64,000 nucleotides of DNA from Candidatus Campbellbacteria bacterium (lineage in GTDB: Bacteria > Patescibacteriota > Minisyncoccia > Phycocordibacterales > EsbW-18). Numbering within the stretch: the first letter of the stretch is position 1; every line of letters starts with the position of its first letter. The position numbers and the translations under genes were made by a program. The stretch spans positions 138,096 through 202,095 of the forward strand of contig CP064977.1 of the NCBI GenBank assembly GCA_016699465.1, in the 5' to 3' direction. The notes below the pieces were generated by a model. It saw only the letters and a program-made list of their open reading frames with translations. It was not told the DNA's origin and ran no database searches. Below, one piece after another: positions 2,588-58,199 of this stretch.

Positions 2588-2722
2588 GATTTTTTGCGGG
2601 GACGAGGCGCAAACATATCTTTCCTGACAGCTTCCACTGTCGGTTGGACGGAGCACCTTGCTTTTGCAGGTTGCTGACGGGTCATAGAGCCAATTCTCTC
2701 GCCGTCTCTTCATACAACTATT
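2588..2722 (-). promoter_or_regulatory. Candidate SAM-I (S-box) riboswitch aptamer in the metK leader
   Basis: The minus-strand sequence AAGAGACGGCGAGAGAAUUGGCUCUAUGACCCGUCAGCAACC ... AGGUGCUCCGUCC ... GACAGUGGAAGCUGUC resembles the S-box core (AAGAGnGGnGGAGGGAnUGGCCCnAUGAnnCCnGGCAACC, GGUGCnAAnUCC, GCAGnGGAAnCUGC). GGAAAGAU can pair with AUCUUUCC as an antiterminator. Confidence 0.5.
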
Positions 2723-3676: not shown

Positions 3677-3758
3677 ATGAATATTTTAGCATTTTCACAA
3701 AAGAAAAGGAGTATAATATAGGTATATAGCAGAGGGTCGTCGACTCACTAAAAAGCTA

Positions 3759-3968
3759 TTGAACATAGAAAGTTATATGGGTAGACCAAAAATTATCATC
3801 AAACCTTCAAAAAACAATCAAAGGGTGATTAGTGTTGTGGGTGGAAACGGTGAAAAACTTTTGACGAGCGAGACACTGAAAAGTGACCAGGCAGTCAAGG
3901 TATCTCTCGCAGCCATAAAGAAAGCGGTTCCAAATGGGGTGGTTGTGGATAAAACCAAAAAAAAGTAG
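3759..3968 (+). CDS. DUF1508 (YegP-like) small protein
   Basis: 69 aa; KIIIKPSKNNQRVISVVGGNGEKLLTSETLKSDQAVKVSLAAIKKAVPN fits the YegP/DUF1508 repeat pattern. Confidence 0.5.
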   Translation: MNIESYMGRPKIIIKPSKNNQRVISVVGGNGEKLLTSETLKSDQAVKVSLAAIKKAVPNGVVVDKTKKK

Positions 3969-4071
3969 GTCACTGAGCAAACGTGCTGGTTTAGTGAGTA
4001 CTTGAGGAGAAGGAGAATTGATTGAGTTGTAGCCACTCTCCAATGGGGCATGAAAAGCACACCTCGCTTAT

Positions 4072-35346: not shown

Positions 35347-35919
35347 ATGGAAACCAAGACTGCGTTTTTGAATGGGAAGCTCGTTTCTCTTCGCCCTGTC
35401 AACGAGAACGACGCCGATACTCTTGTTCGATGGATCAATGATCCGGAAGTCACCCACTTTATCTCTTCGGGTGTTTTTCCGAACTCACACGCACAAGAGG
35501 TTTCGTGGATTCGTGGACTCGATGACAAAAAGGACAATCTTGTTCTTGTCATTGAAACCGCGAAAGGTATTCCTATCGGAACCGTCGGCCTTCACAGAAT
35601 CAATTGGGTCGACCGTACAGGAACCACCGGAGCACTCATCGGTGAAAAAGAATACTGGGGAAAGGGATATGGCACCGAAGCCAAGATACTCCTTCTCCAT
35701 CACGCATTCACGAGAATGAACCTGCGAACCATTTCCTCGTCGGTCATTGCTTTCAACGAACGCTCCTACCGGGCACTTCGCAAGCAGGGATACGTTGAGG
35801 TGGGACGTATGCCCAAGTGGCATTATCGTGACGGAAAGTATCACGATCAGATCATGCTCATTCTCACCAAACAAGCGTTCATGCGCAAGTGGAACATCTT
35901 CAAGACTTCTCTCGTCTAG
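35347..35919 (+). CDS. GNAT-family N-acetyltransferase (RimJ/RimL-like); start moved to the METKTAF Met that carries the RBS
   Basis: GNAT acetyl-CoA region VGLHRINWVDRTGTTGALIGEKEYWGKGYGTEA. Confidence 0.7.
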   Translation: METKTAFLNGKLVSLRPVNENDADTLVRWINDPEVTHFISSGVFPNSHAQEVSWIRGLDDKKDNLVLVIETAKGIPIGTVGLHRINWVDRTGTTGALIGEKEYWGKGYGTEAKILLLHHAFTRMNLRTISSSVIAFNERSYRALRKQGYVEVGRMPKWHYRDGKYHDQIMLILTKQAFMRKWNIFKTSLV

Positions 35920-47911: not shown

Positions 47912-48589
47912 TTACGGACCAGGCCACGTAAACTTATGTGTCCAGTTGGTTGAGCTTGTATTCGTGTAGCTGGAACAATTAACACCCGGTGTGCAGTAAT
48001 CACCGCCCGGAAAACGCTGGGTGTTGCTGTAGCGCATTGAATACACGGATACTGTGTATGTTGCAGGATACCCGGCGTGAACATGTGTTCCGTTCCAAAG
48101 ACCACAACCCGTGTCATTGACGATGTTGCCAATGAACTTAACGTTGTATGTATCGTTACCGGCTGTGGCAATAGGAAACTCCTGATTTGAGTTCATGTCG
48201 ATATGAAGATATCGCATGATTCCCCTAATCTTGAGTAGTGCCGTGTCAGCAACAACAACATCTTGCCTCTCACAATCAAAATTACCACCAGTGAGACGAA
48301 CTCGCCTACCAATGAGTCGTGTGGTCTCGTAGGGAGAACTCCCCCTACTAAAAAAACCGCGGAAGTAGACTGCATTGGAGCTGGTGTTGTCCCAATCAAG
48401 GAACGTACCGGTTGACGTTGTTCCGCACGAACCATCGTGCCAGCCACACGTCAAAACAGGCACCTGACCGTTCGTGCCAGATGGAGGAAGCATCTTCACA
48501 ACGTACGTGTAGAGCGTGCCACTTTCGGCAGGAAACGTACCACCAAAAAAGGCACCGAGCAGAATAGGGACCAACCACCTCAGTCGCAT
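47912..48589 (-). CDS. Secreted Cys-rich hypothetical protein (signal peptide), moderately GC-rich; HIDM and THVH motifs hint at a metallo-hydrolase
   Basis: N-terminal MRLRWLVPILLGAFFGG signal peptide; AGGAGA RBS. Confidence 0.45.
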   Translation of the reverse strand: MRLRWLVPILLGAFFGGTFPAESGTLYTYVVKMLPPSGTNGQVPVLTCGWHDGSCGTTSTGTFLDWDNTSSNAVYFRGFFSRGSSPYETTRLIGRRVRLTGGNFDCERQDVVVADTALLKIRGIMRYLHIDMNSNQEFPIATAGNDTYNVKFIGNIVNDTGCGLWNGTHVHAGYPATYTVSVYSMRYSNTQRFPGGDYCTPGVNCSSYTNTSSTNWTHKFTWPGP

Positions 48590-48603: not shown

Positions 48604-49317
48604 TTACTGCGTTCTCGTGCTGGATGCAACGAGCTCAACAAGTTTCATAAACTCTTCTCTAGGGAGGCTAGACGTATGAACAAACGTCAAACCAAACGAT
48701 TCCGGAATCATGGCAATTCCGTTTTCCAAAAAACCGTCTTCCGTGAGGGGTTCGATTACAACCACATCCCTACCAGCAATCTTCATCACCTTTGGACGGT
48801 CCGAGGCAGTGTCGATTTCATCATAATTTAGAACAGTTCGTCCAATAATGATGAGCGCCTGGCTGTGCCCCTTGATCGAATCATCGTAGGTGTAGGTCTT
48901 TTTGGCGATATACGGAACGCCATTTCCACAAGCAACAACCCCGTAATCCATATCATCCTTTTGGATGGCATACTCAGTCGGAAGTTCGAGGTCGAGTGTG
49001 AGTTGACCAGCCTGATCGTCCGGAATAGTAATTGACGATGGCTCGAGACCACACACATCTTCAAACGACGTGTACTTCTCGGGTACAGGTACACCATGTG
49101 GAGCAAGGAAAATGCCACCAATGTCACCACTGAAACGTGGCTTGTTGCGTTCGATGGCAAGTGCGGCGTCACGAATCAAAATGGGGTTTGACAGACGCAC
49201 ATCATCACCGGCGACAAGCGTGGTGCGAAAGTACAACGTTGCACCAAATCCGGTCACGACGAGAAGAACGAAGAGAAGAATGGTACGGGGCGAGAACGTG
49301 GACGTCGAGATGCTCAT
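48604..49317 (-). CDS. N-terminally membrane-anchored hypothetical protein (start moved to MSISTSTF)
   Basis: TM ILLFVLLVVTGFGATLYF, AAGGA RBS; forms an operon with the downstream secreted protein. Confidence 0.4.
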   Translation of the reverse strand: MSISTSTFSPRTILLFVLLVVTGFGATLYFRTTLVAGDDVRLSNPILIRDAALAIERNKPRFSGDIGGIFLAPHGVPVPEKYTSFEDVCGLEPSSITIPDDQAGQLTLDLELPTEYAIQKDDMDYGVVACGNGVPYIAKKTYTYDDSIKGHSQALIIIGRTVLNYDEIDTASDRPKVMKIAGRDVVVIEPLTEDGFLENGIAMIPESFGLTFVHTSSLPREEFMKLVELVASSTRTQ

Positions 49318-49546: not shown

Positions 49547-51520
49547 ATGAAAGCTAAGAAACACCCCCATCACGACCGCCGTGCCCACAAAAATGAGGGT
49601 ACACAAAGGTCTCCACAAACATTTGAAAACACCATCCGTACTATTGCGCGAGGTGTTGGTTTTGTACCGCATCCAACATTAGAGAAAGAGGATATCCGTA
49701 TTGAAAGCGAGAATCTTAATACCGCTCTCAACGGAGACCTTGTAGAAGTAGAGCTTCTCGGAAAAAAACTCCGCGATCAACACCTTGGTCGTGTTACACA
49801 TATAGTGCATCGTGCACGAACAAAATTTGTAGGAAATGTTATTGAAGAAGACGGCATGACGTTCCTGGTACCCGATGACCGCAAAAGCTACATTAAAATT
49901 CTCCTTTCAAAAGATGAGGATGTGTCCGTAAATGAAAAAGTATTTGTGGAATTACTTCCGTGGACCAATCCTACCGAAACACCTCGCGGAAAGGTACTCG
50001 AACGACTCGGCAACAAAGGTGTTCATGAAGTAGAAATACGCTCCATTATCTTGGAAAAAGGAATTGACGATACGTTTCCAAAGGCGGTTGAAGATGAAGC
50101 CGACCGTATTCACAAAGCCTATAAAGTTGAAGAAGTGCTTGTAGGACGAAAAGATTTTCGTACCGTACCAACGTTCACCATTGACCCTGTTGATGCAAAA
50201 GATTTTGATGATGCTATTTCATTTCAATTTCTACCAGATGGTACGTATGAAATTGGTGTACATATTGCCGATGTATCACACTTTGTCACACCAGGAAGCG
50301 CCCTTGATCAAGAAGCCAAGAAACGAGCTTTTTCAGCATATCTCGTTGACCGCACTATTCCGATGCTCCCTGAAATTCTCTCTAATGACTTATGTAGTCT
50401 CAAAGCAGATGTTGATCGTCTCACCTTTTCTGCGTGGTTTGTAGTTGCACAGGACGGAACAGTACTCTCACGAAATTTTGGAAAATCAATCATTCACTCC
50501 GATAAACGCTTTACCTACGAAGAAGCTCAGGATGTCCTCAATGCTGGTGAGGGCCTCTATTTCAAGGAGCTCAACACACTTAATACTCTTGCAAAGAAAT
50601 CACGAGAGCAGCGTATGGCAGCAGGTGCTATTGATTTTGAACAACACGAGGTTCGTTTTGAATTGGCAGATGACGGCGTTCCCCTTTCCGCATACTTGAA
50701 AGAACGACTTGATACTCACAAACTTGTTGAGGAATTCATGTTACTTGCCAACCGTGAAGTTGCCGAGCACGCCTACAAAAAATATACCAAAGCACGTCAC
50801 GCATTCATCTACCGAATTCACGACACACCAAACATGGACAAAATCAAAGATTTGGCCTCCTTTGCGCACGCACTTGGCCACACACTCGAGATTTCTCCCA
50901 AAGGAACAGTGACCGGCAAATCACTCAATAAGCTCTTCAAAGACGTTACCGGAACACCTGAGGAGGATCTTATTGCAACAGCTGGAATTCGTTCTATGGC
51001 AAAAGCAATCTACTCAACAGCAAATATTGGACACTTTGGACTTGCACTTCCAGCCTACACACACTTCACATCTCCTATTCGTCGCTATGCCGATCTTATT
51101 GTGCATCGACTTCTAGATTACATGAACACTAATGGTCAACTTCCCAACAACGACTACGCAACGTATGCAGCCATTGCTGATAGTATTTCAAATCGAGAAC
51201 TTTCTATTATTGAAGCTGAGCGTGAGTCCATAAAACTCAAACAAGCAGAATACATGAACGCACGTGTTGGCCAAGAGTTTGATGCAGTCATTTCTGGAGT
51301 ATCTGAATGGGGTATCTTTGTTGAAGAAACAAATACACACGCCGAAGGTCTTATTCGTCTCTCTGATATGCCAAACGACTTCTACAAGTATGAACAGAAA
51401 AAGTACCGCATCATTGGACAAAAAACACACAAAGTATATTCACTTGGTGACCAAGTTCGTATCACCGTCAAAGCGGTCGACATCGACAAAAAATTAATTG
51501 AGTGCGCGCTTATTGCGTAA
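49547..51520 (+). CDS. rnr: Ribonuclease R / RNase II-family exoribonuclease
   Basis: RNB catalytic block DPVDAKDFDDAISF, C-terminal S1 domain. Confidence 0.9.
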   Translation: MKAKKHPHHDRRAHKNEGTQRSPQTFENTIRTIARGVGFVPHPTLEKEDIRIESENLNTALNGDLVEVELLGKKLRDQHLGRVTHIVHRARTKFVGNVIEEDGMTFLVPDDRKSYIKILLSKDEDVSVNEKVFVELLPWTNPTETPRGKVLERLGNKGVHEVEIRSIILEKGIDDTFPKAVEDEADRIHKAYKVEEVLVGRKDFRTVPTFTIDPVDAKDFDDAISFQFLPDGTYEIGVHIADVSHFVTPGSALDQEAKKRAFSAYLVDRTIPMLPEILSNDLCSLKADVDRLTFSAWFVVAQDGTVLSRNFGKSIIHSDKRFTYEEAQDVLNAGEGLYFKELNTLNTLAKKSREQRMAAGAIDFEQHEVRFELADDGVPLSAYLKERLDTHKLVEEFMLLANREVAEHAYKKYTKARHAFIYRIHDTPNMDKIKDLASFAHALGHTLEISPKGTVTGKSLNKLFKDVTGTPEEDLIATAGIRSMAKAIYSTANIGHFGLALPAYTHFTSPIRRYADLIVHRLLDYMNTNGQLPNNDYATYAAIADSISNRELSIIEAERESIKLKQAEYMNARVGQEFDAVISGVSEWGIFVEETNTHAEGLIRLSDMPNDFYKYEQKKYRIIGQKTHKVYSLGDQVRITVKAVDIDKKLIECALIA

Positions 51521-51527
51521 GAACGCG

Positions 51528-51575
51528 AAACAGCCCCGCCGAGTACAAAGTACGTCGGCGGGGCTGTTTCATTTT
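51528..51575. terminator. Bidirectional terminator between rnr and the propeller-like gene
   Basis: cagccccgccga/tcggcggggctg 12-bp stem with A/T flanks. Confidence 0.7.
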
Positions 51576-51588
51576 CGCTTTCTACTTT

Positions 51589-53457
51589 CTACATCCCCGC
51601 CAGCTGTTGTTGGAGTAGTGCCACGAGTTGTTGAATCAGAGAAACAACCTGTACTTTGATATCAGCGATGAGTTTCGTTCGTTCGTCAGGAGTGAGAGGT
51701 GTGTCGGATGTGGGTGGTAGTAGTGGAGATGGTGGTGGTGTAACGGTATGTGGTTGAGTGGTGGTACGAGTGCTTCCGCCACTTCCTCCATTGGTGTTTG
51801 AGGGTGAGTCATTAGCGGTGAGGGTACAGGTGTAGGTGGTGTTGAGGGACATGGTGAGAGTTCCATCTGATGCACAGTCGCCACCCCAGGTGATGTCATA
51901 GGTGGTGCCAGCGGGTGTTGCGTGGGTGAGCGTATGGGCGGTGGCGAGAGTCGTGGTGGCGACTGCGCTGGTGATAGGGAGACCATCAAGGTAGAGGGTG
52001 AAGTCTGCTACCTCTGCAGTACCACGGTCGTCGTTGGTGAGTGTGGTGGTGACGGTGAGGGTTGGTCCAATGTCGTCATTGGTGACGGTACATGCATACG
52101 TACTTCCCGCCTCCATGGTGATGTCACCGTTTTCGTCACAGTCTCCGCCATATGTGACGGCATACGCAGGGTCTTCTGTTTCGGAGATGGTGTATGAACC
52201 TGCTGACAGTGTGGTGGTGGCTACGCCACTGTCGATGGAGACACCATCAACAAACAACGGAAAGTCCTCGACGGCGAGTGTTCCTCCGTTGTCGTTGGTG
52301 ACTGTGGTGGTGATGGTGAGGGTCGGAGAAGAGGGCGGGTATGCAAACTTAAGATCAGCGTTGGTGGTGTCGTAGTAGCTTATGAGCGGAACGTCATCGG
52401 TGTCGAGAAAGATTGATGGGTACGTACCAACAGTACCCGATGAGTCAACAGTTTCAGTGGTGTTCGTCGAACAATCCGCATTGGTGCACTGGAGAAGCTC
52501 AAGATCGCCGTCCGCATCGTCGTAATATGCGATTCGAGCGAAGCCATCAGACCCCATGGCGGAAGATATACCCTGCCCCGCACCTCCCAACGGATCAACA
52601 ATGGTGCTGGTATTTTTCGTTGAACAATCGGCGTTGGTGCACTGAACAAAGCGTAATGTGCCACCACCGTAATAATAAATAATACGAACAAAACCATCCA
52701 AACCAAGAGAGAGTCCCGTGTTCACTAACCCGAGATTATCTGAATCAACAATCGTGATGTTTTTTGTTGAACACGACGCATTGGTACACTGAGCAAATTT
52801 CAAAAGAGCGTTATACGAATCGTTGTAACTAATACGCGCGAAACCATCGCCACCAATAACAAGAGACGTACCGTCCCCAAGCAGGTCGCCTCCGGGATCA
52901 ACTCCGGTGTCAACCACCGTAGTGACCCGCGTCGAACAATCGGCATTGGTACATTGAATAAATTTCAAACTATTAGGAACAAAGTCATCGTAACTATTGT
53001 ATGAAATGCGCGCGAAACCATCCCCTCCCATCGCGATAGACGTGTATCTTCCGACAGAACCAGTCGAATCAATGGTTGTTATGACATTCGTCGAACATGC
53101 GGCATTAGTACACCGAACAAATTTGAGATCTTTGTTTGTAAAGTCGTTGTACGCAATGCGTGCAAAACCATCAGCACCTATCGCAATAGACGTGTATCGC
53201 CCAACAACCCCTGTTGAGTCGATTGTTGTGACAACCTTTGTTGAACAGTCTGCATTCGTACACTGAATGAATTTGAGGTTCGTATTGGTAACATCGTAAT
53301 ACGCGATGCGCGCAAAACCATCCAAACCACGTGCGCTAGATACATACTGTCCAACGTTTCCCGTCGAATCGAGCGCTGTTGTTGTCCACGTCGCCGCAGA
53401 AACAAGTGATGGAACACTAATAATTAAAAACGCGACAACAAATAGAAGTTTTTTCAT
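51589..53457 (-). CDS. Secreted repeat protein: signal peptide, about eight ~46-aa propeller-like repeats each with a Cys pair, two ~85-aa beta-sandwich-like repeats, low-complexity Pro/Thr linker and a C-terminal helix
   Basis: Repeat unit TTIDSTGxVGRYTSIAxGxDGFARIAYxDxTNxDLKFxxCTNAxCST; C-terminal PTLTxTTTxTNDxxGT ... GGDC ... TYxCTxT repeated twice. Confidence 0.6.
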   Translation of the reverse strand: MKKLLFVVAFLIISVPSLVSAATWTTTALDSTGNVGQYVSSARGLDGFARIAYYDVTNTNLKFIQCTNADCSTKVVTTIDSTGVVGRYTSIAIGADGFARIAYNDFTNKDLKFVRCTNAACSTNVITTIDSTGSVGRYTSIAMGGDGFARISYNSYDDFVPNSLKFIQCTNADCSTRVTTVVDTGVDPGGDLLGDGTSLVIGGDGFARISYNDSYNALLKFAQCTNASCSTKNITIVDSDNLGLVNTGLSLGLDGFVRIIYYYGGGTLRFVQCTNADCSTKNTSTIVDPLGGAGQGISSAMGSDGFARIAYYDDADGDLELLQCTNADCSTNTTETVDSSGTVGTYPSIFLDTDDVPLISYYDTTNADLKFAYPPSSPTLTITTTVTNDNGGTLAVEDFPLFVDGVSIDSGVATTTLSAGSYTISETEDPAYAVTYGGDCDENGDITMEAGSTYACTVTNDDIGPTLTVTTTLTNDDRGTAEVADFTLYLDGLPITSAVATTTLATAHTLTHATPAGTTYDITWGGDCASDGTLTMSLNTTYTCTLTANDSPSNTNGGSGGSTRTTTQPHTVTPPPSPLLPPTSDTPLTPDERTKLIADIKVQVVSLIQQLVALLQQQLAGM

Positions 53458-53559
53458 ACATTTTTAAGTTAAACAACTCCACCAGCTAAAACCATATCTC
53501 ATATAGCATACCATCCACCCCATTCTTCGCGTCAGTACTTTGTGTATAACTTTTTTTAA

Positions 53560-53690
53560 ATAGTATGTAGTAGCTGGTATGTAGTATGCGGGAGGAGATT
53601 TTGGATATTTGCCTGCCTGCGCAGGCAGGATATTAGATTTTTCCACCCCCTACATACTAACTACCAAATACCAGCTACCATTCCTCTATC
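53560..53690. promoter_or_regulatory. Structured element in a divergent promoter region: perfect 18-bp palindrome CCTGCCTGCGCAGGCAGG flanked by imperfect inverted tacatacta / taccagctac arms
   Basis: Read directly; the tacatactac motif recurs at 59080-59105. Confidence 0.35.
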
Positions 53691-53712
53691 TGGCGTTGTA
53701 CACTATGTACAT

Positions 53713-53964
53713 ATGCTTGGTACACCGTCATTAAATTTTTTTGGCACCATATCTTCTGCACTTCCGAACACACTCTCCCCTGTTATTCTGTGGGTGATTT
53801 TTGCAGTCGTCTGTATCGTATGGAGTGTCCTTGCTGGTATCCTTGTCTATCACTGGAATGCATATGATGCACACAGCAAACGCCTCATACGAGTCCGTCG
53901 TATCTTCTTTATTGGTTCTTTCGTTATACTATCCCTTGCCGCAAGTTTTATTTTTTCTCTATGA
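53713..53964 (+). CDS. Small two-TM membrane protein
   Basis: 83 aa; 4-nt overlap with the downstream bPH gene. Confidence 0.4.
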   Translation: MLGTPSLNFFGTISSALPNTLSPVILWVIFAVVCIVWSVLAGILVYHWNAYDAHSKRLIRVRRIFFIGSFVILSLAASFIFSL

Positions 53965-54703: not shown

Positions 54704-54746
54704 AGCTATAAGCTAACAAGCTATAAGCTAACAAGCTATAAGCTAT
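54704..54746. repeat. Tandem 15-mer AAGCTATAAGCTAAC, about 2.9 copies, overlapping the smc stop codon; member of the ATAAGCTAACAAG motif family
   Basis: aagctataagctaacaagctataagctaacaagctataagctat. Confidence 0.8.
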
Positions 54747-57043
54747 TTGGCCACATGCACTGCTTCATCAAACGAAACAGACAACAATTGTGAAATGGCA
54801 TCGGCTCCCATAGTGATTCCGTAAAGCACTCCTGCCCGAGACATTGTTTCACGATTGTGCGTGATCAAGATAAGCTGTGTTTTCTTTGCAAGATTTTCAA
54901 TCATATCTCCATAGCGCTTCGAGTTTGCTTCATCGAGCGCCGCGTCTGTTTCGTCCAAAATAATGAATGGTGGAGGATTTACTTGAGACATTGCAAAAAT
55001 AAGTGCAATCGATGTAAGCGCACGCTCCCCTCCTGAAAGCATTTCCAAACCATGCACTTTTTTACGCGGAAGAGAAATATGAATTTCAACACCTTCAAGC
55101 ACTTTTTCTTCACGCGACACCTCACTGTCGACATGATTATCATCAGTAAGCCCCTCGATATCGGTGTCTCGTTTTGCCTTTCGAATTTCACGAACAACCT
55201 CAAGTGACGCACTTCCACCATTAAACATGAGTGAGAAAAATTCAGAAAACTGCTCGTTTATTTTTTTGATACCTTCAGCAAATTCACGCGCAAGTGTTTC
55301 TTCCAAATCAGCAATCAAAGCACGCAATGACACCGCAGATTGTTCCAAATCAGCAACTTCTTTTTCCAAAAATGCATCTCGTTGTGAAACCTCTTCAAAT
55401 TCTTTGACGATTTCATCACCACCTCCACTTCCTGCATCCTCCAAGCGAACTTTTGTACGTTCAATTTGTCGCTTGCGTTCGTGTTGTTCACTACGATCTT
55501 CTACAATTCCACTCTCGGCAAGTGCAGTAGACAAATCATCAAATCGAACCGCCTCAACACCCACTAGTGCACCCGCTTCAAGTAAATCACGTTTGTATTC
55601 CTCTTCTTCCAACTGGTAGGTATTTTTTTCACTCAGCAATGCTTGAATACGCATACGCACTTCTTGTTGTTCATTTGAAAGTGTAAAAATACGTCGTTCC
55701 ATTTCACGTCCCGAGTGCATGTCTGATTCGATTGTTTGTTGAATACGTCTGTATTCGAGAGCACACTCTTGCTCTTCTTTTTCTAGACGTAAACGCTCTT
55801 CTTCACGAGCCTGTGTATCACTTTCAAGTTGTGTAAGACTGTCGCGAACCTCCTGAATATCTTCATTGTGTACTGCTTCTCCACGAATGGTGTTCATAAA
55901 CTCAGACACGAGCGTTTTGATATCACCGAGTGCTTTTTTGAATTCTGTTGGATTATTTTGAGAGAGAGCGCTGTCTATCAAACGCCCCAAAGTTACCGTC
56001 ATTGAAGATACCGATAGAAACGGCACTGTTTTATGCGCTTCTTCCGATTGTTTGCGTTCCTCTTTTGCAAGGAGTGAACGAAGTGCAGAAATTTCTCCTT
56101 CAATGCGTCCGATATCTCGCACCGCCGCGTCTTTCTTTTCTCGCACACTGCGCATTTTTTCTTCCGACACTAGCAATGCATCCGACGTCACGTCTTTTTG
56201 AGAAAGTTTTTGCAATTCTTCTCGTGCATGAGCAATATCCTTTTGTAATTGCTCCATACGACTTTCTTGAGGAGAGAGTTCGTGTGTGATACGTGCAAGG
56301 GTGGAATCAAGGTATGCTTTTTCACGAGCAAAATATTCTCGATACGCTTGTTTCAAATCAAGAGCTAATTCACGTGCCTTCTCTACCTTTGCAACCTGTT
56401 TTTTTAAAAATGCCAGGTGTGGCTTAAGTTCACGGCGAATACTTTCAACCTTCTCAAGGTTTTCTTGTGTCTTCTCAAGTTTGTGCTCACTCTCTTCTTT
56501 TTTGTAATGGTAAATTTTAAGTCCAAGTGCATCTTCAACCATCCCTTTACGTTCGCGGGCATTCACCGACAAAATCCTGTCAGCCTCACCTTGCGAAATA
56601 ATATGGTGACCCGAAGCTCCAATGTGTGCACCAGAGAGAAGCTCGATGGTGTCTTTCAATCGAACCACAGATCCATTGAGACGATACTCACTCGTTGCAT
56701 CACGATGGATAATGCGCTCAAGGGCAACTTCGTCAAAGTCTATTCCAAAAAGTCGACCTGACTCTGTTGCATTTCCCATCGTTGTGTTATCAAACACCAA
56801 CTTCACATGCGCCCGATTGCTTCGCGGCACAGTCTTTGAACCATTCCAAATAAGATCTTCGGTGCGTTTTCCACGCATTGATTTGATTGACTGCTCACCA
56901 AGAACAAACCGAAACGATTCGGCTATGTTTGATTTACCAGAACCATTTGGACCAACAATGGCGGTAATAGGTGTTGTAAATTCAAGCGACGCTTTTTTGG
57001 CGAACGATTTGAATCCGGAAAGTTCTAGAGATTTGAGATACAT
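54743..57043 (-). CDS. smc: SMC-family chromosome condensation ATPase, compact 766-aa form
   Basis: N-terminal FKSFA ... IVGPNGSGKSNI Walker A; C-terminal LSGGERALTSIALIFA signature plus Walker B ILDETDAALD. Confidence 0.85.
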   Translation of the reverse strand: MYLKSLELSGFKSFAKKASLEFTTPITAIVGPNGSGKSNIAESFRFVLGEQSIKSMRGKRTEDLIWNGSKTVPRSNRAHVKLVFDNTTMGNATESGRLFGIDFDEVALERIIHRDATSEYRLNGSVVRLKDTIELLSGAHIGASGHHIISQGEADRILSVNARERKGMVEDALGLKIYHYKKEESEHKLEKTQENLEKVESIRRELKPHLAFLKKQVAKVEKARELALDLKQAYREYFAREKAYLDSTLARITHELSPQESRMEQLQKDIAHAREELQKLSQKDVTSDALLVSEEKMRSVREKKDAAVRDIGRIEGEISALRSLLAKEERKQSEEAHKTVPFLSVSSMTVTLGRLIDSALSQNNPTEFKKALGDIKTLVSEFMNTIRGEAVHNEDIQEVRDSLTQLESDTQAREEERLRLEKEEQECALEYRRIQQTIESDMHSGREMERRIFTLSNEQQEVRMRIQALLSEKNTYQLEEEEYKRDLLEAGALVGVEAVRFDDLSTALAESGIVEDRSEQHERKRQIERTKVRLEDAGSGGGDEIVKEFEEVSQRDAFLEKEVADLEQSAVSLRALIADLEETLAREFAEGIKKINEQFSEFFSLMFNGGSASLEVVREIRKAKRDTDIEGLTDDNHVDSEVSREEKVLEGVEIHISLPRKKVHGLEMLSGGERALTSIALIFAMSQVNPPPFIILDETDAALDEANSKRYGDMIENLAKKTQLILITHNRETMSRAGVLYGITMGADAISQLLSVSFDEAVHVAK

Positions 57044-57161
57044 CCCGTTAGAGGCAGATCGCGATCCGTATTAATCTGCGCATCATTACTGAAACTTATA
57101 AAACTTCTTTATCCAATCTTTTTGTGATATCCCTAGAAGCGATCGCGGCTTCTAATGGGAT
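57042..57161. repeat. Copy 1 of a ~120-bp element with 14-bp terminal inverted repeats (atcccgttagaRgc ... gcttctaaYgggat) abutting the smc start codon
   Basis: Alignment with 58894-59012; both termini and an internal gcagatcgcgatc-N7-atctgcg hairpin are conserved, the centre is divergent. Confidence 0.8.
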
Positions 57162-57227
57162 ACATACACGTTATCGATAAGGCAGTCTTTATTATCGCAA
57201 ATAATTTTCTTTTATGCCAACGGAAAT

Positions 57228-57254
57228 GCCGGCCGAGGGACTCCCTCGGCCGGC
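57228..57254. terminator. GC-rich hairpin gccggccgagg/cctcggccggc after the small minus-strand gene; followed by an ATAAGCTAACAAG motif
   Basis: 11-bp stem with a 5-nt loop; no clean U-tract. Confidence 0.4.
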
Positions 57255-57263
57255 CAACATAAG

Positions 57264-57566
57264 CTAACAAGAACGATAGAACGTCATGCGATGCGCCCCA
57301 CAGTCACAGCAATGCACCGTAGTTTCTCGTGCCCCCACCTTTCGATAGGCGATGTGAGCATGAGCACACTGGTTGATGTGTCCCTGCCACAAGAGCTGCA
57401 TAATCATTATCTTCTTCTTGAGAAAAACAATCAGCTCGAGAAAGAGGAATGCGGTAATGAAATACCGAAGCAGTTTACCCTGTAACCCCGTCAACACCTC
57501 AATAGAGTTCTTCAGTGATAACGCCTCGTCACTGACAGTAGTCCGAAACTTCTGCGAATTGGACAT
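57264..57566 (-). CDS. Small hypothetical protein with a hydrophobic core and a Cys/His-rich C-terminus (HCCDCGAH)
   Basis: AAAGGAG SD 5 nt before the second ATG; 100 aa. Confidence 0.35.
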   Translation of the reverse strand: MSNSQKFRTTVSDEALSLKNSIEVLTGLQGKLLRYFITAFLFLELIVFLKKKIMIMQLLWQGHINQCAHAHIAYRKVGARETTVHCCDCGAHRMTFYRSC

Positions 57567-57707
57567 ACGTTCTCCTTTCAAGGATATCCGAAAAAAGTAT
57601 ACTCAAAAACACAATGAGCGCAACACGCCTTTCATAGTTACTGACTTATCAACATATCTGAGTACTATCACGTCAGAACATGTACCGACAAAAGAAAGGG
57701 CTACGCC

Positions 57708-57944
57708 ATGGGCACCCATCAAAAAGTCGATGTTTCAGCACTTCGTACGGATGTGTTAGAGGAAGTGAAGAGCACCCTTCGTCTCACCCACTGCCCGAAG
57801 TGTGGTAACGGCATGGATTCGGACACCTGCTCTCTTGGTGTCGAAATTCAACGACCAGATAACGATTCCTTCGGTAACACCCAGAGCAAGTGGAAAACTT
57901 GTCCAGCGTGTCAGCTCGTTTGGCAACTGAAGCTTTGCAACTAG
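57708..57944 (+). CDS. Small zinc-ribbon protein (CPKC ... CPAC)
   Basis: 78-aa ORF, AAGGG RBS, + strand terminator at 58136. Confidence 0.4.
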   Translation: MGTHQKVDVSALRTDVLEEVKSTLRLTHCPKCGNGMDSDTCSLGVEIQRPDNDSFGNTQSKWKTCPACQLVWQLKLCN

Positions 57945-58135
57945 ACCAATGAAAGAGGCGACGGTATGGTTACCGGAGAAGGATACCTGCTGAGTTTGTA
58001 CGCCTTCAGTAACTGTTACTGTCGCTCTTCACTTCTGTACACTGGAGAGGTGTGGAACCGTAGACACGGTTTGATTATTGAGGATAGTAAGCGTGGACAC
58101 GGACGTCTTCCTTTCTAGTTCCTTTCTAGAACGCA

Positions 58136-58170
58136 CGAGGCACCTTCCTTACTGGGATGGTGCCTTTTCA
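58136..58170 (+). terminator. Hairpin aggcacc/ggtgcct plus TTTT
   Basis: 7-bp stem with a 14-nt loop. Confidence 0.4.
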
Positions 58171-58199
58171 CATACTTGTATAGAAATATATTAAAAAAC

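Follow-up and report, generated by a model that had tools for sequence, protein, structure and literature searches.

What occupies the kilobase between rnc and smc in the genome of this Candidatus Campbellbacteria bacterium, and how did it come to lie there? The locus was analyzed within a window of 64,000 nt (contig CP064977.1, positions 138,096 to 202,095), in which an initial annotation made from the letters of the sequence had described a cassette with two divergent genes for small Cys-rich proteins, bounded by two copies of a terminal inverted repeat (TIR) element and possibly forming a toxin-antitoxin-like or regulatory pair. The sequence features that it described were recovered where it had placed them, and those needed here are listed below in window coordinates.

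54743..57043, minus strand: smc (short, 766 aa; Pfam SMC_N, 4e-61), the conserved downstream flank, collinear with the related loci L001 and L002
57043..57160, no strand assigned: TIR copy A, 118 bp, in the smc 5′ leader, with TGTA duplications at 57039-57042 and 57161-57164
57167..57227, minus strand: AT-rich spacer (GC 0.33, host-like) containing a promoter-like site
57228..57254, minus strand: perfect 12-bp GC-rich hairpin (inverted repeat I3), 9 nt past the orfA stop, terminator-like in the scan
57264..57566, minus strand: orfA, 100 aa, an ORF read directly, with a Shine-Dalgarno (SD) sequence AAGGAGA 5 nt before the ATG and a TAG stop
57567..57707, no strand assigned: divergent spacer of 141 bp between orfA and orfB, with presumed back-to-back promoters
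57708..57944, plus strand: orfB, 78 aa, putative zinc-ribbon, with CPKCG at residues 29-33 and CPAC at 65-68, a weak SD and a TAG stop
57966..58118, plus strand: orfC, 50 aa, doubtful, seen in translation in the frame of orfB after its TAG and seven codons
58137..58166, plus strand: hairpin identified by folding, followed by only ~4 T; the terminator scan makes no call
58200..58895, minus strand: rnc (RNase III; Pfam Ribonucleas_3_3, 9e-39, and dsrm, 1.7e-17), the conserved upstream flank of the slot
58895..59011, no strand assigned: TIR copy B, 117 bp, between nusB and rnc, with TGAA duplications at 58891-58894 and 59012-59015

Results

The rnc-smc spacer carries a block of foreign composition

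The distance between rnc and smc in this genome is 1156 bp, and a high-GC core of ~0.94 kb (57228-58170), marked at both edges by hairpins in the inverted repeat and folding analyses, lies inside a cassette of 1.03 kb. The GC content of the core is 0.484 vs. a window mean of 0.438, and GC3 reaches 0.59 in orfA, 0.54 in orfB and 0.49 in orfC, compared to 0.31 and 0.33 in rnc and smc. With a codon model trained on the host, orfA scored -0.15 and both orfB and orfC -0.02, while host genes scored 0.33 ± 0.17; the codon scores of the cassette ORFs fall outside the host gene range. The SD usage follows the same division, with core genes devoid of an SD and AAGGAG present in higher-GC accessory genes and in orfA. 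The AT-rich spacer next to copy A contains a promoter-like TTGGCA-18-GATAAT with an upstream TG (57220..57191), which could drive smc.

The cassette lacks mobility genes, an integrase included, as well as att-like direct repeats, tRNAs and recognizable defence genes; no direct repeat of at least 8 bp links its two edges, and searches with Rfam (at gathering and at E ≤ 5) and ARAGORN returned nothing credible as an RNA gene in the rnc-smc gap. An integron cassette was considered and rejected by inspection, since RYYYAAC/GTTRRRY cores are missing from the 3′ hairpin, a perfect GC palindrome, and an integrase is not present nearby.

The slot is hypervariable and the block is absent from relatives

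A set of 160 related nusB-rnc-smc loci was used for comparison, 121 of which entered the gap statistics. The gene order nusB-rnc-smc is kept in essentially all loci having these genes; the tight adjacency of rnc and smc that the initial annotation had taken as normal is not the rule, the gap ranging from 8 to 2036 bp and measuring 120 bp or less in only 47 of the 121 loci. Elsewhere the slot holds mutually unrelated cargo, namely pilin-like genes, NUDIX, an IS200/RAYT-like gene and orphans, and pilin-like ORFs are common (33 ORFs in one cluster). The rnc-smc spacer is thus a hypervariable slot in this clade.

By tblastn and blastn, none of the 160 loci contained a trace of the cassette or of its ORFs, a result that, along with the composition unlike the host, upheld the earlier description of a ~1-kb inserted module. 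In the nearest relatives the gap is 99 bp (L001, rnc 88% identical in aa) and 60 bp (L002, rnc 79%); both are collinear with this locus as far as the rnc stop and the smc ATG, which supports the block as an insertion relative to them. Between their genes, L001 and L002 have diverged too far for the insertion junctions to be placed exactly. Exact look-ups of rnc, nusB, L32, an 83-aa neighbour, orfA and orfB found no conspecific genome, and a metagenome scan with rnc gave no match above 63%.

Strain-specific islets located in hypervariable hot-spot slots between core genes are a known concept of pangenome studies. The cassette resembles them in being flanked by the syntenic core genes nusB-rnc and smc, in being absent from the nearest relatives with atypical GC3 and codon usage, and in occupying a slot that carries other cargo in other lineages; it differs in its size of ~1 kb and in having no integrase, tRNA, att repeats, defence or mobility cargo.

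orfA is a real gene of a very rare family

In order to judge the ORFs by length, we recorded the longest ATG-initiated ORF in 1000 dinucleotide shuffles of the cassette. It reached at least 100 aa in 8.9% and at least 78 aa in 30% of them, so the lengths of orfA and orfB are within chance.

An exhaustive search of 1.84e9 representative proteins returned one homologue of orfA, P0001, known from one Logan contig of 47.7 kb. The two proteins are both 100 aa long and align without gaps at 56% identity (E 6e-30), and C67, H69, H71, C86, C89, G90 and C100 are invariant between them. That P0001 has the same length, aligns at this identity free of gaps and keeps the Cys/His positions shows orfA to be a genuine coding gene, whose family is very rare; the 100-aa minus-strand gene with a strong SD and a Cys/His tail was hence correctly recognized at the outset. 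Since this validated gene scores like a non-gene, the host-trained codon model is unable to classify the cassette ORFs and was set aside as a gene classifier for them. A second candidate homologue, P0002 (768 aa, nine matched stretches), is a tandem-repeat protein covering only residues 52-78 of orfA and was discarded as spurious, and three plasmid matches to the orfA C-terminus had E values of 0.1-0.9, the best of them out of frame with the annotated CDS.

Beyond P0001, orfA had no match in Pfam, NCBIfam, PADLOC, PHROGs or the PDB sequences, and none in a JGI metagenome scan. Viral contig scans with orfA, orfB, the alignment A1 and P0001 were empty, and blastn and tblastn against phages and plasmids gave no accepted matches. 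A word-index search of 5.8e9 proteins returned nothing for orfA or orfB, a weak negative because the same search also missed the true homologue P0001. No paralogy between orfA and orfB was found.

From its N-terminus the orfA protein has a polar helix and then a hydrophobic one (residues 32-50), and it ends in a Cys/His cluster (C67-x-H69-x-H71 ... C86-x-D-C89-G ... C100). This knuckle most likely binds zinc, judging from its ligand pattern. The maximum KD hydropathy over 19 residues is 1.85 in orfA and 1.62 in P0001, with charged residues inside the hydrophobic helix in both (E44 in orfA; R44 and D36 in P0001). The segment could be a membrane anchor or an oligomerization helix. AF2 predicted a single helix at residues 3-76 (pLDDT 75), and a Foldseek search with this model gave no match; the structure prediction recommended at first thus provided no clue to function, for orfA as well as for orfB. 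In proteins of the DksA/TraR type a long helix or coiled coil precedes a zinc finger at the C-terminus, an organization similar to the predicted long helix and C-terminal Cys/His cluster of orfA. The orfA ligands, however, are arranged as C-x-H-x-H...C-x-x-C...C rather than CxxC-x17-CxxC, its helix is strongly hydrophobic, and it does not match Pfam zf-dskA_traR even at E ≤ 1.

The hairpin past the orfA stop, the GC-rich one pointed out earlier and confirmed here as a perfect 12-bp stem, is probably the intrinsic terminator of orfA, as its position and fold (z = -3.0 for 57167-57290) indicate, and it forms the left edge of the high-GC core. A separate ATAAGCTAACAAG motif reported in the same region is the end of orfA, its last codons and TAG stop, read in reverse complement, and was dropped as a feature in its own right.

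orfB probably encodes a small zinc-ribbon protein

Two CxxC motifs spaced 10-45 aa apart occurred in 0.2% of random ORFs of at least 60 aa (p ~0.002), and two CPxC motifs in none of 3995 random ORFs. orfB is therefore probably coding, since a double CPxC is rare in random ORFs, and it is predicted to be a small cytoplasmic protein, probably a zinc-ribbon. Compared with known small zinc-ribbon proteins (the Zn_ribbon clan, FmdB CxxC_CxxC_SSSS, YnfU, Lar-like), orfB is similar in having two CPxC(G) knuckles 32 residues apart in 78 aa and in giving weak local model matches at the first knuckle, but it stays below the threshold of every model, with no homologue found and no confident fold. The best score was 19.6 bits for CEP104_ZnF vs. 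a cut-off of 27.4, and Zn_ribbon_3 gave 17.1 bits vs. 27. The claim of a plus-strand zinc-ribbon gene therefore stands for the CPKC ... CPAC motifs and, with probability, for coding, while recognition by a family model failed. For both cassette proteins it is the motifs that suggest metal binding. No homologue of orfB was found in the word-index, viral contig, phage and plasmid searches, which are of limited sensitivity, and the AF2 single-sequence model (pLDDT 44) is unreliable. An antisense ORF within orfB (57756-57926) scores better than orfB on host codon usage.

A third ORF, orfC (57966-58118), missing from the initial annotation, lies downstream on the orfB strand. A long hairpin sequesters its SD and AUG, and the minimum free energy fold of 57940-58180 has z = -3.1, with none of 200 shuffles as stable. 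No family match was obtained for orfC in Pfam, NCBIfam, PADLOC or PHROGs and no homologue was found; the fused 136-aa orfB-orfC product had no family match either. The stretch may be a structured 3′ UTR, an sRNA or the remaining end of a gene that a nonsense codon has cut short.

The hairpin at 58137..58166 appears to be a weak, terminator-like end of the plus-strand unit, at the right edge of the core and facing the rnc 3′ end. Of the "own terminator" proposed for this unit at 58136-58170, the hairpin was confirmed, and the T-tract of ~4 residues and the lack of a call by the scan weaken the rest. In the 141-bp spacer, candidate promoters were seen by eye (TTGCGC-16-TATACT for orfA, CTGACT-16-TACTAT for orfB); they count as inferred because the consensus scan of 57567..57707 found no site at 9/12 or better.

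The TIR elements are independent insertions at start codons

The TIR termini (ATCCCGTTAGA...TCTAACGGGAT) form arms in copy B that are perfect over 14 nt, and they recur in copy A. The two copies, the only ones in the 64 kb, are directly oriented, 1.85 kb apart and 74% identical. Copy A lies between the cassette and smc and copy B upstream of rnc, and what they enclose is rnc together with the cassette, so that they do not bound the cassette as had been thought. Nor do they delimit or appear to have mobilized the module, each having its own duplication. The smc ATG was regenerated at the end of copy A because TGTA was duplicated at insertion, and the rnc ATG at the end of copy B through the duplication of TGAA. 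As these target duplications differ, the two MITE-like copies inserted independently, one at each start codon.

Nine copies were counted in 7 genomes, and L001 and L002 have no element at the same sites. The 4-bp duplication pattern was seen also in L099, L106, L120 and L149, and was not clear in L031 and L121. Other lineages have single related elements at these gene boundaries and no cassette. No autonomous partner with a transposase was seen in the window or in the 160 loci, and scanning viral contigs gave nothing.

Bacterial MITEs such as Correia/NEMIS provide the nearest comparison: the TIR copies share with them a length of ~120 bp, terminal inverted repeats and short target duplications, and are likewise non-coding, intergenic and transcribed as leader hairpins. 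Unlike them, they make 4-bp TGNA duplications overlapping start or stop codons, conserve only the outer ~14 bp between lineages, and cluster at the nusB|rnc|smc boundaries with no autonomous partner found. In copy B the upstream duplicated ATG opens a frame that ends at a TAA, 4 nt short of the rnc ATG; coupling through such a uORF was rejected as a general property, being not conserved, with early stops in copy A and the L099 copies. Elements of this kind lie on both sides of rnc in several lineages, and they might, though this is unlikely, be retained for the long hairpins that they add to the leaders, by which RNase III would control rnc and smc.

Discussion

The reading that we favour, with a probability of about 0.7, is that the cassette is a small horizontally acquired islet, a self-contained divergent module lodged in a hypervariable slot, to which the TIR copies are unrelated. 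A foreign islet of ~1 kb would have been acquired horizontally and have settled in the rnc-smc spacer of a genome of Paceibacteria/Kaiserbacteria type (Patescibacteria), where the central 141-bp spacer, with its two presumed promoters, would feed two opposite units: leftward orfA, with a strong Shine-Dalgarno and a GC-rich hairpin terminator, and rightward orfB, behind which come a strongly folded tail and a hairpin acting as a weak terminator. In a working model orfB would bind nucleic acid and regulate from the promoter region that both units share, and orfA would be the effector, serving some accessory or selfish function. The TIR copies would be later events, separate insertions at the smc ATG and the rnc ATG with 4 bp duplicated each time.

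The same block might instead be what decay has left of a prophage, an integrative element, a plasmid or the like, a remnant devoid of current function in which orfA may be intact and orfB-orfC would be a 136-aa gene cut by a TAG nonsense codon. The shared frame of orfB and orfC, separated by TAG and seven codons, would fit this, and so would the failure to find homologues for either, a codon usage unlike the host, the absence of mobility genes, an integrase included, and of att-like direct repeats, and a slot tolerant of many unrelated insertions; however, a shared frame is expected by chance in one case out of three, the fused product is also without a family match, both zinc knuckles lie inside the 78-aa ORF, and orfA keeps a full ORF, a strong SD, a terminator and the length of P0001. 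We consider this origin unlikely. It is very improbable that the block was ancestral to the lineage and deleted in the sampled relatives, given that no trace exists in 160 of 160 loci across the clade, that its GC3 and SD usage are sharply unlike those of the flanking core genes, and that the only homologue of orfA is 56% identical while rnc reaches 88% in the nearest relative; that only two reasonably close relatives (rnc 88% and 79%) and no conspecific genome are available speaks for it. We give almost no credence to a composite transposon that would move rnc and the cassette together. Two directly oriented copies 1.85 kb apart, the only two in 64 kb, suggest such a structure, but the outer ends of a composite would have a single duplication in common, whereas the copies have TGTA/TGTA and TGAA/TGAA; they are only 74% identical, rnc sits in its conserved nusB-rnc-smc position, and single related elements occur at the same boundaries elsewhere without the cassette.

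A toxin-antitoxin interpretation was weighed as well. The cassette is similar to type I and type II modules in being a self-contained two-gene unit of ~1 kb with patchy distribution and foreign composition, but orfA and orfB diverge from the 141-bp spacer and do not form an operon as in type II, and no TA or defence family was matched in Pfam, NCBIfam, PADLOC or PHROGs. The toxin-antitoxin-like or regulatory pair proposed initially gained no backing from these databases or from the PDB, and its genes, being divergent, are not co-transcribed. In a type I-like version orfA would be a hydrophobic toxin and the plus-strand unit a structured regulatory RNA rather than an orfB/orfC mRNA. The hydrophobic helix of orfA (KD 1.85 over 19 residues), the unusual stability of the plus-strand segment 57940-58180 (z = -3.1) with the orfC start buried in it and the self-contained unit with terminators are consistent with this version, and the divergent layout recalls tisB/istR-1. 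Type I toxins, however, are usually hydrophobic peptides of less than 60 aa, whereas orfA, with 100 aa, a conserved Cys/His domain and a helix of borderline hydropathy, is far above the typical length, and E44 (R44 and D36 in P0001) fits a pore-forming transmembrane peptide poorly. Moreover, the inverted repeats include no long stretch over which the plus-strand RNA could pair with the orfA leader, Rfam gave no match, and the double CPxC argues that orfB is coding. A type I-like module is thus quite improbable.

Returning to the horizontally acquired islet, a bolder version would have orfA and P0001 form a new small helical, C-terminally zinc-binding family which, with the divergent zinc-ribbon gene, makes up an undescribed mobile two-gene module (e.g., for addiction, exclusion or host interaction) landing in the rnc-smc slot of ultra-small Patescibacteria; we hold this to be distinctly unlikely. 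The cassette is an ordinary strain-specific orphan islet and opens no long-standing question. Its analysis adds one validated member, orfA, to a two-member orphan family with a conserved Cys/His tail, and orfA should be called as a gene in annotation. It also corrects the view of rnc-smc adjacency, which is not the rule in the clade. The TIR elements that regenerate start codons are arguably a more interesting lead than the cassette itself. For the biology of these organisms, the locus indicates that even Patescibacteria genomes of the 0.6-Mb class keep permissive slots that gather foreign small genes.

Organisation of the rnc-smc interval

The genes of the locus run on the minus strand in the order nusB-NUDIX, rnc, a gap of 1156 bp and smc, as read from the sequence and backed by Pfam for all three genes. 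The gap, in which no tRNA, tmRNA or Rfam family was found, carries a block (the cassette) with three small ORFs, orfA, orfB and orfC:

59113-60003, minus strand, nusB-NUDIX (Pfam)
58200-58895, minus strand, rnc (Pfam)
58137-58166, plus strand, hairpin followed by about four T
57966-58118, plus strand, orfC, 50 aa, in the frame of orfB past TAG and seven codons
57708-57944, plus strand, orfB, 78 aa, CPKCG...CPAC
57264-57566, minus strand, orfA, 100 aa, TAG stop, AAGGAGA 5 nt ahead of the ATG
57228-57254, perfect 12-bp GC hairpin, 9 nt past the orfA TAG stop
54743-57043, minus strand, smc, 766 aa (Pfam)

orfC was missing from the ORFs listed for the gap by the initial annotation, and the ATAAGCTAACAAG motif claimed there is the complement of the final orfA codons and stop, nothing separate. 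Since rnc, orfA and smc are all co-directional and the hairpin at 58137-58166 lacks a U tract on the minus strand, transcription of rnc may read through antisense across orfB and on into orfA. The promoter scan showed a promoter-like site at 57220..57191 (10/12 with TG) past the orfA terminator, within the AT-rich spacer; this site could drive smc expression through the terminal-inverted-repeat (TIR) element at the smc start codon.

The SMC protein has just 766 aa, whereas a typical bacterial SMC is far longer, at about 1,180 aa; the alignment to L001, one of the two closest related loci, is of similar extent (about 2.3 kb), and the short SMC is apparently characteristic of the lineage.

Insertion of the block into a hypervariable slot

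A protein scan with rnc, taking one genome per species, yielded 80 loci, which belong to Paceibacteria, Kaiserbacteria and related groups, and a metagenome rnc scan yielded 80 further loci, all at 63% or below. The order nusB-rnc-smc was kept throughout, with rnc-smc gaps among relatives of 8 to 2036 bp. That rnc and smc are normally adjacent, as previously stated, does not hold for this clade: of 121 loci, 47 had a gap of at most 120 bp, 16 had one of 121-400 bp, 28 one of 401-1000 bp and 30 one above 1 kb; the idea of a block inserted between them was correct, gap size and cargo being variable among relatives. The commonest cargo, seen in many Paceibacteria (L005, L008, L011, L012, L013, L029, L039, L040, L063, L068 and others), is type IV pilin-like genes, one to three per slot, with the N-terminus GFTLxELLVV. 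Further cargo comprises a NUDIX gene, an IS200/RAYT-like gene and various orphans. The IS200/RAYT-like ORF, of tyrosine transposase type by motif reading only (YHIFNRG...HYHLILQ), lies in the slot of one Kaiserbacteria MAG (L060, 2505-3188, minus strand).

In the two nearest relatives the gap measures 99 bp (L001, rnc 88%) and 60 bp (L002, rnc 79%), and both align with the window as far as the rnc stop and then again from the smc ATG. No trace of the cassette DNA, orfA, orfB or orfC was found in any related locus, even at E≤10. The block is thus an insertion into a hypervariable slot.

The composition of the block agrees with its acquisition. The GC content of the core (57228-58170) is 0.484, higher than the 0.438 averaged over the window, with AT-rich host-like spacers on either side (GC 0.33 and 0.17), and GC3 is 0.59 in orfA, 0.54 in orfB and 0.49 in orfC compared to 0.31 in rnc and 0.33 in smc. 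Shine-Dalgarno sequences are almost never present upstream of core genes (GC about 0.41-0.44; for example the starts at 57043, 58895 and 60003), whereas AAGGAG or GGAGG precedes several higher-GC accessory or orphan genes, namely orfA, a GNAT gene (35347-35919) and the orphans at 47912-48589 and 60506-61018; a further orphan, 48604-49317, shows a weak AAGGA match only. The block is acquired and compositionally foreign. Two translation-initiation styles seem to exist within this one genome, and the Shine-Dalgarno style may mark acquired genes.

Other features of the window are:

60506-61018, minus strand, 170-aa orphan ORF between rpmF (L32) and rnhB, GC 0.54
51505-53758, 2.25-kb stretch missing from L001 (63 bp at that site), encoding a 622-aa secreted repeat protein with regular CTNA(D/A)CST spacing, GC 0.50
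61724-62560 and 62564-63712, minus strand, tandem paralogues with near-identical N-terminal ~130 residues and LTSAEGLxLPxSIGG repeat arrays, GC 0.51-0.53, strong positive plus-strand GC skew
2612-2718, minus strand, SAM riboswitch (RF00162, 53.8 bits) upstream of metK (1470-2561)

The Shine-Dalgarno contexts of the 170-aa orphan (AAAAAGGAGAGCGTCATG) and of orfA (GAAAGGAGAACGTATG) are very similar; the orphan had no family match, and its alignment to L001 was weak.

Coding status of the three ORFs

ORF length is not evidence for genes here, since shuffled versions of the cassette contained an ATG-ORF of at least 100 aa in 8.9% of cases and one of at least 78 aa in 30%. A host-trained codon model (host genes 0.33±0.17, wrong-frame ORFs -0.26±0.18) was uninformative on the cassette ORFs, with scores of -0.15 for orfA and -0.02 for orfB and orfC. 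Searches of Pfam, PHROGs, PADLOC, NCBIfam, PDB sequences and PDB folds gave nothing significant, and orfA and orfB are not related to each other.

For orfA the question was settled by a homologue, P0001, which an exhaustive HMMER search through 1.84 billion representatives brought up (100 aa, 56% identity, gap-free, E 6e-30), a singleton on one 47.7-kb Logan contig; a second match, P0002, was a tandem-repeat artefact. The two proteins agree at C67, H69, H71, C86, D88, C89 and G90, in the MTFYR motif and at the terminal C100, and sequence conservation thus identifies orfA as a real, conserved protein gene with an invariant Cys/His pattern. The AF2 model predicts a single helix over residues 3-76 (pLDDT 75) and a low-confidence Cys/His tail. 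Peak 19-residue hydropathy (residues 32-50) is KD 1.85, and 1.62 in P0001; the stretch includes the charged E44 (R44 and D36 in P0001), which leaves two readings, a borderline membrane anchor and an oligomerisation helix.

No homologue of orfB was found. The word-index protein search among the searches made is a weak negative for short proteins because it gave no candidate for orfA despite the presence of full-length P0001 in the same collection. Among random ORFs of at least 60 aa, 0.2% contain a pair of CxxC motifs spaced 10-45 residues apart and none of 3995 contains a CPxC pair, so that orfB is probably coding, or was until recently; its structure model is unreliable (pLDDT 44). The status of orfC as a gene is doubtful: its Shine-Dalgarno and AUG are hidden in a long stem, the fold of 57940-58180 having z = -3.1. 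The stretch may represent a structured 3′ region, or else the end portion of a 136-aa gene that a TAG has interrupted.

TIR elements at the smc and rnc start codons

A search of the whole window found two copies of a MITE-like TIR element, 74% identical to each other. They belong to a family of 117-195 bp with termini ATCCCGTTAGAG/A ... CTCTAACGGGAT and unrelated interiors:

57043-57160, window, copy A, between the cassette and smc, TGTA duplication
58895-59011, window, copy B, between nusB and rnc, TGAA duplication
3756-3876 and 3879-4002, L099, tandem pair
1696-1819, L106, flank overlapping the rnc stop codon
4959-5153, L120
3841-3960, L149
7899-8024, L031
443-566, L121

The two window copies had been taken to bound the cassette, which their positions contradict, copy B lying on the nusB side of rnc. 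A composite transposon is likewise excluded, because the duplications are separate and rnc is in its conserved position. Since each 4-bp duplication overlaps a start codon (element end ...CGGGA|TG), the ATG of smc (copy A) and of rnc (copy B) is regenerated. In copy B (58900-59015, minus strand) the duplicated upstream ATG opens a uORF of 37 codons whose TAA lies 4 nt ahead of the rnc ATG; with early stops in copy A and the L099 copies, this feature is not conserved.

Eight of the nine copies lie in nusB-rnc or rnc-smc spacers (distantly related Paceibacteria), six of these eight with TGNA-like 4-bp duplication flanks overlapping the rnc or smc start codon, or the rnc stop in L106, an overlap that restores the ATG where the element ends; the elements are absent from the closest relatives of the window. 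The survey loci were all picked around rnc, a biased sample; clustering around rnc nevertheless looks non-random, both within loci and across the 64 kb of the window, whose two copies lie on either side of rnc. It could stem from a permissive site or an ATGNA target preference; retention as RNase III-cleavable leader hairpins is speculative.

Discussion

The block comprises two divergent units, each bordered by a hairpin on its outer side. The 141-bp spacer between them would hold back-to-back promoters; the promoter scan called no site in it, and the candidates were picked by eye. The Cys/His clusters would bind zinc, with orfB as a putative small nucleic-acid-binding regulator and orfA as a putative effector of an accessory or selfish function. 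The toxin-antitoxin-like pair proposed in the initial annotation is a less likely reading and finds no support in the features that could be tested: the genes do not form an operon and show no family homology, and the length of orfA exceeds that of a type I toxin.

The chief alternative to two working units is a decaying remnant in which orfA alone is intact. orfB and orfC share one frame with a single TAG interruption (57708-58118, plus strand), an arrangement that could reflect chance, a nonsense mutation or the trace of a donor reading TAG differently; TAG ends all three cassette ORFs compared to 12 of 42 host genes.

Of known kinds, the block comes closest to a strain-specific islet in a hot spot between core genes, and all four defining features tested were found. 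Small orphan proteins abound in Patescibacteria genomes, and the cargo is new as sequence and ordinary in kind for this group. Beside this main result on the cassette, the TIR elements are the more unusual observation.
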